DNA from: Moraxella nasicaprae
Lineage (GTDB): Bacteria; Pseudomonadota; Gammaproteobacteria; Pseudomonadales; Moraxellaceae
Direction of reading: 5' to 3'
Length of the DNA: 32,000 nt
Assembly (NCBI RefSeq): GCF_025643275.1
Contig: NZ_CP089977.1
Span: forward strand, 1,590,001 to 1,622,000
Made by a program: the position numbers. Of this stretch, positions 16,061 through 22,000 are shown in pieces; the first letter of the stretch is position 1, and every line of letters starts with the position of its first letter.

Positions 16061-19000
16061 TTATTGGTTTGTTTATAACTGTTTATAAATCATGATAAAC
16101 TTGTGTATTATGCCACATTTTCCGTGTTTTGCCTACTCAATCAAAGGAATTGTCGGATAATTTATCATAAAAAATCATCAAATCATCATAAGAGATAATA
16201 TTTACTATCCAATCCTTGATTTGTCTTGATGGGTGGTCGTCATCTGATGGGTGTTGAGCGATTGGTTGATTGCCAATTTTCATTGATTTGACCACACCAA
16301 TCAATGCACTACGCCAAAAATCAAAACTCAAATCATTTATGGCAATGCCTATGGCTTTATCATAAATAGATAAAATACCCAATGAAAAATCAACCATGTC
16401 CATCAAAAATCCAAAGAAAATCTGTGTTATAATGCCACAAAAATCAACCCATGATGATAAACACGATGAAAGTATTAGGTTTGGAAACTTCCTGTGATGA
16501 GACAGGGCTTGCGATTTATGACAGCACGATGAATGACGGCAAGGGTGGCGTACTTGCCCAAGTGTTGTATAGCCAGATTGAGCTGCATGCCACTTATGGT
16601 GGTGTCGTGCCAGAGCTTGCCAGTAGAGATCATATCCGAAAACTTGTCCCACTATTAGATGAGCTGTTTGCCAAAGCACAGATTGATAAATCTGCCATTG
16701 ATGCTGTTGCTTATACCAAAGGTCCAGGCTTGATTGGGGCATTGATGACGGGAGCGTTATTTGGTCGCACACTTGCCTATGCGTGGGGCGTACCAGCCAT
16801 TGGTGTACATCACATGGAAGGACATCTGCTGGCTCCGATGATGACAGGCGATGAGGTGGCTTTTCCTTTTGTTTGTTTGCTGGTTTCTGGTGGGCATACG
16901 ATGCTGGTGCGTGCTGATGGTGTCGGTCGGTACACGGTGCTGGGCGAGTCGATTGATGATGCAGCAGGCGAGTGTTTTGACAAAACTGCCAAGATGCTAG
17001 GCTTGCCTTATCCAGGAGGGCCTAATGTCGCCAAACTGGCAATGACGGGCAATCCTAAGGCTTATCAATTACCTCGACCAATGCTGGGCAAGGGATTGGA
17101 TTTTTCGTTCAGCGGCATGAAGACGGCGGTGCATAATCTCATCAAAGACACGCCAAATGCAGACAATGATGAGAAAGTGCGAGCGGATATTGCAGCAAGT
17201 TTTGAGTACGCAATGGTGGATACTTTGGTCAAAAAATGCACCAAAGCCCTCACGCAAACCAACCTAAAACGCCTTGTCATTGCAGGAGGTGTGTCTGCCA
17301 ATTTGCGTCTAAGAAGCACTCTTGAAACCGCCCTTGCCAAGATGGGGGCGAGTGTCTATTATGCTCCGCCAGAATTATGCACGGATAATGGTGCGATGAT
17401 TGCTTATGCAGGTTTTTGCCGACTTCATGCAGGGCAGGGCGATGATTTGTCGGTGGCGTGTGTGCCTAGATGGGATATGCAGACATTACCTGTGGCAGAA
17501 TTTGACTGATTTTTTAAAATCTTGACAGCCTAAAACCTAGTTATTGCAATGCCTGATGTGATATATTGAATTATTTTCAACTCTTTTGAAAAATATATCA
17601 ATTTTACTCAAACACAATTTATGGTTTAATAAGTCATCTTTTCAAGGCAAGCAAACAAGGTGTTACCATGACCGCAGCATTTCAATGTCAAGTTCATACC
17701 CTAGATTTTGATGAAAATTATGAGCCAGCCAAAAGCACTCGTTTGACGACCAACTTTGCTAATTTGGCTCGTGGCGAAAACCGTAAGCAAAATTTGCAAA
17801 ACACCATCAAAATGATTAACAATCGTTTTAATGATTTGGCGAATTGGGACAATCCAAATGCTGACCGCTATTCGGTCAAATTGGAAATCGTCTCTATTGA
17901 TATTGATGTGGCGGGCGAGGGCGAATACTTCTCTGGTCTTGAATGGTTAAAAACATATATTATTGATAACAAAACGGGCAAGAAAATTGACGGTATTATC
18001 GGTAATAGTTTTTCATCATTTGTCCGTGATTATGATTTTAGTGTTTTGCTACTAGATTATAATAAAGATAAGCCAGAATTTACTGTGCCAAAAGGCTATG
18101 GCGATTTGCATGGTAAACTGTATAAATACTTGCTTGATTCACCAGAATATAAAGCTAGGGGTGAAAAACCACCTGTGCTTTGCCTAAGTGTGGCGACCAC
18201 TCGTACCTATCATCGCACCACAAATATTCACCCAATTTTAGGCGTAGAATATGTACAAAATGACTATTCTTTGACCGATGAATATTTTGCTAAAATGGGC
18301 TTAAAAGTGCGTTATTTTATGCCACAAGGTTCGGTTGCTCCATATGCGTTTTATTATGATGAAACCGCAGATTTGCTTAATGATTATACCGCTTTGGAAT
18401 TGATTGGTACTATTGCTACGATGGAAGCGTTCCAAAAAATTTATCGCCCAGAGATTTATAACGCCAATTCGGTGGCAGGTCAAACTTATAAAGGCAGTTT
18501 GACTTATGATGATTATTCACTGACCAAAGTCGATTATGACCGTGTGGAGCGTACAGAGCTTGCCATTAAACAGGGTAAATACACCGAAGAGCATTTTATC
18601 AAACCATATAAAGAAATTTTGGAAAATTGGCTTAACAATCAATAACCAGATATTCTTGTAAAATCACAAAATCAGCCGATGATGACGGTCGGCTGATTTA
18701 GATTTTTAGTTGTATGTTGATTTTTTATACTAGGACAAAACAATGAGCAAAATTTTACTTCCTACTTCTACTGCTGGTAGTTTACCCAAACCCTCTTGGC
18801 TTGCTGAACCTGAAAAATTATGGTCGCCTTGGAAATTTGAGGGCGAAGAGTTGTTGCAAGCAAAACAAGATGCCTTATTGGTATCGCTGGCTGAACAAGT
18901 TGCCGCAGGTATTGATATTGTCAGTGATGGCGAACAAACTCGTCAGCATTTTGTCACGACATTTATTGAACATTTAAATGGTGTGGATTTTAACAAAAGA

Positions 19001-22000
19001 GAAACCGTTCGCATTCGTAACCGTTATGATGCCTCCGTGCCAAGCGTAGTGGGCGATGTCTCTCGTCCCAAGTCTGTTTTTGTGGAAGATGCTAAGTTTT
19101 TACGAGCTCACACCGACAAGCTCATCAAATGGGCGTTGCCTGGTCCGATGACCATGATTGATACGTTGTATGATGGTCATTATAAAAGTCGTGAAAAACT
19201 GGCGTGGGAATTTGCTAAAATTTTGAATGAAGAAGCCAAAGAATTGGAAGCGGTAGGCGTGGATATTATCCAGTTTGATGAGCCAGCGTTTAATGTGTTT
19301 TTTGATGAGTTGAATGATTGGGGCATTGCTGCCTTAGAGCGAGCAGTAGAAGGCTTAAAATGCCAAACCGCAGTACATATCTGCTATGGCTATGGCATTA
19401 AGGCAAATACTGATTGGAAACAAACACTTGGCTCTGAATGGAGACAATATGAAGAGAGTTTCCCATTACTGCAAAAATCTAACATTGACATTATTTCATT
19501 AGAGTCCCAAAACTCCAAAGTACCGATGGATTTAATTGAGCTACTTCGTGGCAAAAAGGTAATGCTTGGGGCGATTGATGTGGCGACCAATCAAATTGAG
19601 ACACCTGATGAAGTTGCAGATACCTTGCGTAAAGCTTTACAATTTGTTGAAGCAGAGAATCTATATCCTTGCACCAACTGTGGTATGGCACCATTGTCTC
19701 GCACGGTAGCTCGTGGTAAACTAAACGCCCTAAGTCAAGGGGCTGCGATTATTCGTGGTGAGCTTGGCGGTCAATAAGAGATTTATTCCCATGATGCCAA
19801 TCTATGGTGTGATGGGAATGCCGTTTGACGACTTCATAGGAAGCACAAGCGGTTTTGATATGGTTATTAAAAAGATAAGAAAATAAAAATGGTATCTGTT
19901 ACAGAGTTTAAAGATGCAATGGCACAGCTTGCCACAGCGGTGCATGTCGTGACCAGTGATGGCGAAAATGGACGATACGGTTTTACTGCCTCTGCGGTGT
20001 GTAGTGTTACTGATTCTCCGCCTACACTCCTTGTGTGCATGAATACAAACATTCGCTTTTATGATGAGTTTGTCAAAAATGGTGTGCTGATGGTGAATAC
20101 CTTGACTGCCCAGCAGTCCGAACTATCTAACGCCTTTGCTTCACCACTCGCCAGTGAAGAACGCTTTGCCAAAGCAGAGTGGACAACTTTGGTGACAGGT
20201 TCGCCAATGTTAAAAAATGCTTTAATCAATTTTGATTGTAAAATTAGCGAAATTAAACAAGTGGGTACACATGGTATTTTAATTTGTGAGATTGTTGGTA
20301 TTCATCAAGGCGATGATGATAAAGCACTTATCTACCATAATCGTGGCTATCATCAAGTCTGATGGCATAAAAAAAACCTGAATTTAGTTCAGGTTTTTTA
20401 TGCTATTAGCCATCACCAGATTGTGTCATTGAGCAAATTTGCCATAAAACAAAATAAAGCTAGCCACTTAATGAAAACAGATGATGAGATTTTGATGAAC
20501 AAAAAAATACGCAGCAAGGTGCGTCTTTGTCAAATACGATGATAAATCTTAATGACGAGTGGCTGGCAGGCTGTCTTTGCCCTCGATGCGAACCACTTGA
20601 CCTTGATTATCAAAATAAATGCTTAGGTATTGAGCTGCATTTTTGATGTTGGCTTTTTTCTGGCGTTTGCCATCTGTGCCAGCGGTGTAGTCGTATAGAT
20701 AATCCCAGCGATTTGGCGACAATGTATCACGCATGGCAGGACTGCCAAGTAGATACAATACTTGATTGGTGTTCATGCCAATTTGGACTTGATTGGCTTG
20801 TTGCACGCTCAGAGGCGTTCCTTGTGGCAAATCAATGGTGTAGACACGAAATAGATTACAGCCGCTTAGCAGTAGAATGCTTGCCAAAGCAGTGCTGGCA
20901 AATTTAAGCACGGTAGATGTTTGCATTGTTATTCCTAGGATACTATCGTTTGGTTCATCTTACCGATAAACTGCATAATATGCAAGCATTTTTGATGCTC
21001 AGGGTGTGTTTACGACCGATAAATAACCAAAATAAATCATATTGATTTCTTCAATGGTAGTTATTGATGAACTTTATCGTAATGATTTGCAACTATGGGT
21101 AGATTTTGGGCGGTAAGATTGTTAAAATGGCGTAATAAATAGAAAAACTGAAATATAGGGGTCGTTATGGCTTTTACTAATAAAGATTTACGCAAAGTTG
21201 GCTTAAAAGTTACTTTACCACGCATTAAGATTCTTGAACTATTAGAAAATTCTGAAAATCATCACATGAGTGCCGAAGATGTCTATCGTGCCTTGGCAGA
21301 GCAGGGCGAAGATGTTGGCTTGGCGACGGTGTATCGTGTTTTGACGCAGTTTGAGCAAGCAGGTATTGTAGAACGCCATAATTTTGAAAATAATCTTTCG
21401 ATTTTTGAAATCGTTCAAGATGAGCATCACGACCATTTGGTGTGTGATGTTTGCGGTAAGATTGTCGAGTTTCACAATACCTTGATTGAAGATGAGCAGC
21501 GTCGTGTTGCTGAGCAAAATAACTTCAAACTATCTGGTCATTCTTTGGTGTTGTATGGCGTGTGCGACAGTCCAGAGTGCCAAAAAACAGACGAAAAATA
21601 AACCAATCCACAAAAAACCCAACTCTTCATCGAGTTGGGTTTTTTATTTTGCTAATACACCAAAAAATCATCTAGTGTAACTGCTCCAACACATCTTTGG
21701 CAACCGCTTGGCTGATTTTGCCTTGTGCCAGCAGATGTTTTAGACCATGCTCAAAGCTGCTCATGCCAAATGCCGCTCCCGTGCCAATCATTGATGGGAT
21801 TTGGTGGGTTTTATGTTCACGAATAAGATTTTTGATGGCTGGCGTGGCAATCATAATCTCATGGATTGCCGTACGCTCTCCTTGTGTGTTTGGCAGTAGT
21901 TTTTGGGCGATGACCGCCTGTAAGCACTCAGATAGCATTGTGGCAATCAATGGCTTTTCTTGACTGTCAAATACATCGACCAAGCGGTCAATACTTTTGG

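Follow-up and report, generated by a model that had tools for sequence, protein, structure and literature searches.

Which route from homocysteine to methionine is encoded by a three-gene cluster in the genome of Moraxella nasicaprae, what part might be played in it by the flavin reductase gene at its end, and how is the cluster controlled? The cluster, composed of mesX, mesD and the reductase gene, lies in a 32,000-nt stretch of contig NZ_CP089977.1 (positions 1,590,001-1,622,000, forward strand), hereafter called the window, in which all coordinates below are given unless a locus is named. We read it, with a probability of about 0.88, as a mesX-mesD-flavin reductase cluster for a vitamin B12- and folate-independent conversion of homocysteine to methionine, which would work by the mechanism and under the MetR control outlined below. 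The locus is an ordinary Moraxella member of the already described MesX/MesD system, including its reductase neighbour.

MesD and MesX were named by Price, Deutschbauer and Arkin in 2021, and the pair rescues Escherichia coli metE and metF mutants only in air (PMC7857596). MesD needs MesX and oxygen, but not MetF, as was shown genetically in Acinetobacter baylyi, in Sphingomonas koreensis and by complementation in E. coli (PMC7857596). In A. baylyi, MetH depends on an external supply of vitamin B12, without which methionine cannot be made unless mesD and mesX are intact (PMC7857596, PMC2290942); deletion mutants of ACIAD3524, of “metE” and of the unlinked metR are methionine auxotrophs (de Berardinis et al. 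2008, PMC2290942). A literature search found no later paper on the mechanism of MesX.

Identity of the three genes

The initial annotation had described three consecutive genes for proteins of 325, 344 and 157 amino acids (aa), and the open reading frames (ORFs) are present exactly as it described them, all on the forward strand: mesX at 17668-18645, mesD at 18743-19777, and the flavin reductase gene at 19889-20362, with 97 bp between mesX and mesD. The 325-aa product had been called a DUF1852 protein, and this holds: it matches PF08908 (“Putative oxygenase MesX”, formerly DUF1852) at full length, with 553.6 bits against a cut-off of 25, over model positions 1-322 of 323. By analogy with the systems already studied, it would be the partner of MesD that requires oxygen and provides the methyl group. 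Its closest named homologs are Moraxella proteins, including one from M. oblonga at 92% identity.

The 344-aa product, which had been taken for a MesD protein consisting of the MetE C-terminal domain only and carrying an HxC...C zinc motif, is best described as a zinc-dependent core methionine synthase. Residues 6-332 match the catalytic domain PF01717 (127.5 bits), the N-terminal folate domain is absent, and Pfam detects no other domain. The NCBIfam model NF006589 scores 678 bits against a cut-off of 392, while all other methionine synthase models score 219 bits or less. Price et al. require of a MesD protein a similarity to ACIAD3523 of 390 bits with BLASTp or 560 bits with phmmer (PMC7857596). 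With the mesD region of the A. baylyi type strain DSM 14961 serving as proxy for this strain ADP1 protein, the M. nasicaprae protein gives 595 bits at 83% identity (tblastn), and it gives 634 bits (phmmer) against PDB 3RPD, so that its similarity exceeds both values. The latter structure, from Shewanella sp. W3-18-1 with bound zinc and selenomethionine, is treated as MesD by the same authors (PMC7857596); the alignment covers 340 residues without a gap and includes all of the ligand residues that they considered. The zinc ligands H212, C214, E254 and C313 are all in place, with H212, C214 and C313 forming the HxC...C motif, and so are the homocysteine-binding residues S13, E64, D179 and the MesD-specific Y217 (Tyr226 of 3RPD). 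The Shewanella loci differ in their surroundings, as they have no HpaC-type reductase and instead carry a TauE-family permease gene upstream on the opposite strand.

Together with that of S. koreensis (PMC7857596), the A. baylyi system is the closest known one. Strain ADP1 has the same three genes in the same order (ACIAD3524/ACIAD3523, with the reductase ACIAD3522), and in the type strain MesX is 65% identical to the Moraxella copy. The genomic setting is also shared: metE and cobalamin synthesis are lacking, both metH and metF are there, and the gene for MetR (in M. nasicaprae, for a MetR homolog) is unlinked. The M. nasicaprae genome, a single 2.1-Mb contig that is 99.8% complete, encodes MetF and an intact MetH of 1265 aa. 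MesD is its only PF01717 match, and therefore there is no metE. The possibility raised in the initial annotation that metE and metH might both be missing is thus borne out for metE and not for metH. Neither a CobS gene nor a cobalamin riboswitch was found anywhere in this genome.

The flavin reductase as a probable lineage-specific accessory

The 157-aa product is, as had been proposed, a flavin reductase, matching the full-length PF01613 domain with 132.3 bits against a cut-off of 27, and its predicted class is that of the HpaC/RutF NAD(P)H:flavin reductases. Its best NCBIfam matches, RutF (TIGR03615, 205.7 bits against a cut-off of 254.75) and HpaC (TIGR02296, 155.2 against 205.95), both stay below cut-off; judged by these profiles, it is a relative of RutF and HpaC and a member of neither equivalog. 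The closest solved relative is PDB 2R0X, a “possible flavin reductase”, at 251 bits, and the HpaC-type structure 3CB0 follows at 131 bits.

We compared its position across three sets of loci. In a family-wide sample of Moraxellaceae, the order mesX-mesD-reductase on one strand is kept in 34 of 35 loci, with reductase identities ranging from 27% to 83%. In the 80 named loci that best match the query, a set biased towards Moraxellaceae, mesD directly follows mesX on its 3′ side in 79, and a PF01613 homolog follows mesD in about half; this position is shared by Moraxella, Acinetobacter, Psychrobacter, Wohlfahrtiimonas, Vitreoscilla, Lonepinella, Rhizobium tropici and several Burkholderiales. Of 401 genomes sampled at the phylum level, mostly Gammaproteobacteria, 37 contain mesX. 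Only four of these, counting that of the window, have a PF01613 gene at a distance of no more than a few kb from mesX; of the 36 genomes other than that of the window, 35 have such genes elsewhere. Co-occurrence with mesD, which the initial annotation had put forward as a measure of the association, is therefore a property of some lineages only, and the linkage is lineage-restricted. In five named loci lacking the HpaC type, namely those of Litoribrevibacter, Thiomicrorhabdus, an Oceanospirillaceae metagenome-assembled genome, Gynuella and Neptuniibacter, a gene of the FNR family adjoins mesXD instead, and the three of these five that were scanned have the Fre/LuxG NAD(P)H-flavin reductase model as their best NCBIfam match, below its cut-off. 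A HemG-like flavodoxin gene takes the place of the reductase in a Marinomonas locus; this gene and Fre/LuxG-like FNR-family genes make up the substitutes mapped at L111:4837-5658, L114:8061-8753, L155:4779-5582 and L158:8232-8756.

Could the reductase be a bystander, that is, a general NAD(P)H:flavin reductase that became fixed downstream of mesD and has no part in methionine synthesis? Its absence from the vicinity of mesX in 33 of the 37 sampled genomes would agree with this, even though nearly all of them have PF01613 genes elsewhere, as would the sufficiency of mesX and mesD in E. coli and the hairpin, described below, which in Moraxella separates mesD and the reductase gene from mesX. A 2026 RNA-sequencing (RNA-seq) study of Acinetobacter baumannii can be read both ways: vitamin B12 lowers the DUF1852 mRNA by 8.3 log2 and the adjacent flavin reductase mRNA by a far weaker 2.5 log2, yet the reductase gene is still co-repressed. 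The conservation of order and strand in the Moraxellaceae despite divergence of the protein, and the recurrence of the same position in Wohlfahrtiimonas, Vitreoscilla, Lonepinella, Rhizobium and several Burkholderiales, argue for a functional link, without which the replacement of the HpaC type by unrelated Fre/LuxG-type reductases in five loci is hard to explain. We consider a bystander role unlikely. Independent recruitment of unrelated flavin reductases, combined with dispensability in E. coli, would agree with a requirement for free reduced flavin and not for a dedicated subunit. Overall, the reductase appears to be an accessory of certain lineages, replaceable by a flavin reductase unrelated to it, which points to free reduced flavin, and not to a specific protein partner, as what MesX needs.

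The suggestion in the initial annotation that the reductase is a plausible third component is not new, because Price et al. had already noted the flavin-reductase neighbor and predicted a flavin-using MesX (PMC7857596). The arrangement is reminiscent of two-component flavin monooxygenases, such as HpaB/HpaC, RutA/RutF and SsuD/SsuE, in which a small reductase of the HpaC/RutF class is likewise encoded beside an oxygen-requiring partner. However, MesX has neither sequence similarity nor convincing structural similarity to any known oxygenase component, and those systems yield a hydroxylated substrate, whereas the product of MesX/MesD is a transferred methyl group.

The MesX model and the hairpin between mesX and mesD

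An AlphaFold model of MesX built from 33 diverse homologs was obtained with high confidence (predicted local distance difference test, pLDDT, 93; predicted template modelling score, pTM, 0.90). Residues G112, D121, D123, F124, G145, L147, S174, Y181, Y206 and M210 are invariant and H148 is nearly so, with no cysteine at any invariant or nearly invariant position. No sequence relative with a solved structure was found at E values up to 1; Foldseek, run against the PDB with the complete model as well as with residues 1-265, returned nothing at E 0.001 or better, and the ESM Atlas look-up gave no usable match and no stored model. An exhaustive VIA-align search of 48,161 chains with the full model produced a list dominated by GNAT-type acyltransferases, with 3EY5 at the top and a Z score of only 4.8. 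When residues 1-265 were modelled alone, 3EY5 was again the best match (Z 5.3, 148 residues aligned at 4.7 Å), and fragments of SMC/Rad50 heads scored about equally with GNAT proteins. The order of secondary-structure elements in residues 6-190 resembles that of GNAT. For models without a clear Foldseek match, the VIA-align notes describe Z scores of 7-8 as typical, and the values of 4.8-5.3 obtained here fall below that range. Since, moreover, the SMC/Rad50 heads score alike after trimming, we assign MesX to no fold and treat the GNAT resemblance of the predicted structure as a weak lead.

The spacer between mesX and mesD contains, on the forward strand at 18669-18709, a terminator-like hairpin with a 12-bp stem and a T-rich tail, which was detected by the terminator scan and is conserved in eight Moraxella species. 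Four of its 14 predicted pairs are kept through two-sided changes, seven of the eight species have a T-run 3′ of the stem, and in several relatives a TGgTATAAT-like motif comes next after the hairpin. The hairpin is Moraxella's own with regard to the Acinetobacter and Psychrobacter mesX-mesD spacers that were folded, in which it was not seen. It may attenuate read-through and thereby set a high ratio of MesX to MesD. In A. baumannii, the unequal responses of mesX and the reductase gene to vitamin B12 indicate uneven regulation along the cluster. The same spacer varies in other ways: one Moraxella genome (L048) has about 1.46 kb inserted between mesX and mesD, possibly a mobile element, and two loci (L051 and L052) have an extra structured element of about 120 nt. 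Further downstream, an 8-bp stem without a T-run (ATTCCCAT / ATGGGAAT) occurs just past the mesD stop codon, at 19780-19825, and a weak promoter-like match precedes the reductase gene at 19855-19884.

One could go further and propose that MesX has a fold unseen among solved structures, that it uses reduced flavin and oxygen in a new methyl-producing reaction, and that in Moraxella the promoter and the hairpin keep it in large excess over MesD. A large excess would be expected of a stoichiometric or slowly recycled methyl carrier, and not of a fast catalyst. We regard this extended proposal as improbable.

A MetR-type box upstream of mesX

The initial annotation had pointed to an upstream box fitting the MetR consensus TGAA-N5-TTCA. 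This palindrome, TGAATTATTTTCA, is located at 17567-17579, 101 bp before the mesX ATG, with its center at about position -64 relative to the inferred transcription start; its conservation upstream of mesX in relatives makes it a likely binding site for a LysR-type activator. In an alignment of eight Moraxella upstream regions nothing aligns 5′ of the box, and the conserved series consists of the box, AAAAATATATCA, TTTT(A/T)(C/T)TCA and GGTTTAAT. The block formed by AAAAATATATCA and TTTT(A/T)(C/T)TCA (17589-17610, forward strand) overlaps the -35 element, and we infer that it would be a second (activation) site for MetR. GGTTTAAT, invariant in all eight aligned sequences, marks the extended -10 element TGgTTTAAT of the putative mesX promoter (17622-17630, with the -10 hexamer at 17625-17630, forward strand). 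This -10 element was not called by a simple sigma-70 scan because the -35 element is weak, as is expected of an activator-dependent promoter. A box near -64 and a second block over -35 represent the usual geometry of LysR-type activators.

By pattern alone the box would not stand out, as the window contains three copies of TGAA-N5-TTCA against 1.29 expected, which is not beyond chance; its weight derives from position and conservation, and not from the count. The exact box is found upstream of mesX in 29 of 36 Moraxellaceae loci, and in 30 of the 80 named loci as compared with 23 of 3031 control 300-bp windows (0.8%) taken from the same loci, which amounts to an enrichment of about 50-fold. 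Measured from the ATG, its position stays fixed, at about -98 to -128, in Moraxella, Pasteurellaceae, Psychrobacter, Wohlfahrtiimonas and Thiomicrorhabdus. Another match within the window, at 20379-20391, was rejected as a regulatory site, because it is the stem-loop belonging to the terminator that follows the reductase gene.

The whole genome contains 49 copies of the pattern, 11 of them intergenic. Exact boxes precede other met genes: one is about 60 bp before the likely metR start, one is 55 bp before metH and overlaps its -35 element, and one is 203 bp before a gene for a MetQ-family lipoprotein. Most of the 11 precede unrelated genes, coding for an adhesin, a PBP1-type transglycosylase/transpeptidase, a P-type ATPase, a DUF6414 protein, and a radical-SAM protein divergent from an aminotransferase. 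A very large gene for a YadA-type autotransporter adhesin has a sequence identical to TGAATTATTTTCA 252 bp upstream of it, at genome position 1458279, probably by chance. A single LysR-type protein has MetR (NF011950, 275 bits) as its sole strong family match, with no other family at E 1e-40. Control of mesX by a riboswitch was rejected: no Rfam match was obtained in 16000-22000 at E values up to 1, leaving the mesX leader without a riboswitch, in line with the genome-wide search for cobalamin riboswitches.

In E. coli and Salmonella, MetR with homocysteine activates metE and metH through TGAA-N5-TTCA, and vitamin B12 represses metE through MetH. The M. nasicaprae arrangement resembles this circuit in having the same palindrome upstream of a B12-independent synthase, of metH and of metR, and in the strong repression by vitamin B12 seen in a relative, A. 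baumannii. It differs in that the target is MesX/MesD rather than MetE, that metR is not divergent from its target gene, and that the site is known here from sequence. The palindrome might instead be a chance product of AT-rich DNA or the target of another regulator, as could be argued from its lack of enrichment within the window, from the copy that is merely a terminator stem, and from the 49 genomic copies, including the one before the adhesin gene. We find this very improbable, given the enrichment upstream of mesX across the 80 loci, the fixed distance from the ATG in several lineages, the placement of the box at the start of the only conserved stretch of the intergenic region, the exact copies before metR, metH and the MetQ-family gene, and the methionine auxotrophy of the A. 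baylyi metR mutant.

Weighing the assignment

Several observations weigh against the reading of the locus as a MetR-controlled mesX-mesD-flavin reductase cluster. Among the folds known from two-component flavin oxygenases there is none that the MesX model resembles, a reductase gene is near mesX in so few genomes of the phylum-level sample, and mesX and mesD alone rescue the E. coli metE and metF mutants (PMC7857596). The hairpin and the TGgTATAAT-like motif raise the prospect that mesD and the reductase gene may be transcribed separately from mesX. Seven of the 36 Moraxellaceae loci are without the exact box, and the MetR homolog, at 275 bits, is under the curated MetR cut-off of 382. The least tenable of the alternatives places the 344-aa protein in another clade (MesA, MesB, MesC or a split MetE), in which case its methyl group would come either from a corrinoid protein or from a folate-binding subunit separate from it. 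This alternative could appeal to the PF01717 domain common to the MesA, MesB and MesC clades and to the weaker matches to other “methionine synthase” NCBIfam models, but is refuted, as far as sequence can show, by the gap between NF006589 and every other model, the gap-free match to 3RPD with its MesD-specific tyrosine, the adjoining mesX, and a genome in which searches for a further PF01717 gene, for CobS and for a cobalamin riboswitch found none.

Flanking features and related loci

The cluster is closed by a bidirectional intrinsic terminator at 20368-20399, recognized by reading the sequence as an A-run, an ACCTGAA / TTCAGGT stem and a T-run; its stem contains too few G-C pairs to have been picked up by the automatic scan. 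Profile searches identified tsaD upstream of the cluster and, downstream, bamE on the other strand, followed by fur and pilT. A 211-aa ORF on the reverse strand (16137-16772), which overlaps the oppositely oriented tsaD, matches no family and is most likely not a gene.

Outside Moraxella, the closest relatives of this MesX/MesD pair are found in Pasteurellaceae and not in Acinetobacter. Moraxella MesX is 78-83% identical to copies from Actinobacillus, Ursidibacter, Lonepinella, Mannheimia and Histophilus, and 61-67% to those from Acinetobacter and Psychrobacter; MesD is likewise closer to the Pasteurellaceae copies than to those of either genus (window positions 17668-19777 compared with L084, L085, L087 and L091). 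In quick FastTree trees, read without branch support, the Pasteurellaceae copies nest inside the Moraxella clade, which suggests transfer between bacteria of animal mucosa.

A gene for a permease of the TauE/SafE (TSUP) family adjoins mesXD in 28 of the 80 named loci, one of them from Bacteroidota, and is placed after the reductase gene, directly after mesD, or divergently upstream of mesX. Examples among L097-L159 are L097:8716-9516, L104:4864-5673, L111:8157-8987 and L130:8286-9122. This neighbor is not mentioned by Price et al. (PMC7857596). The genome containing the window has four TauE-family genes above the Pfam cut-off, none of them near mesX. In Oligella ureolytica (L090, upstream of position 6001), a LysR-type gene, a gene for a full-length 763-aa MetE, mesX and mesD follow one another in a row, and therefore both B12-independent synthases are present in one cluster.

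Proposed mechanism and implications

The scheme that we envisage begins with the reductase, which would use NAD(P)H to provide free reduced flavin. MesX would use this flavin and oxygen to detach a methyl group from a central metabolite or to carry it, and the zinc-activated homocysteine thiolate of MesD would accept it. The reductase would help as a local supplier without being obligatory as a subunit, since general flavin reductases can stand in for it. At the level of transcription, homocysteine-activated MetR, encoded elsewhere in the genome, would bind to the palindrome near -64 and to the second site over -35, and switch on the mesX promoter with its weak -35 and extended -10 elements. 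Owing to the hairpin after mesX, probably only part of the Moraxella transcripts run on into mesD and the reductase gene. In the presence of vitamin B12, MetH would lower the homocysteine level and the cluster would be shut down.

The locus is a clean and compact example of its system; it adds no new component, and it brings the question of the methyl source neither nearer to an answer nor into a form that is easier to test. As the confident MesX model matches no known fold, an experimental structure would be informative, and the MetR control region is legible enough for the design of reporter or footprint experiments. As a widespread aerobic route to methionine that bypasses folate and vitamin B12, MesX/MesD determines whether bacteria such as Moraxella and Acinetobacter depend on their host for vitamin B12 or methionine.

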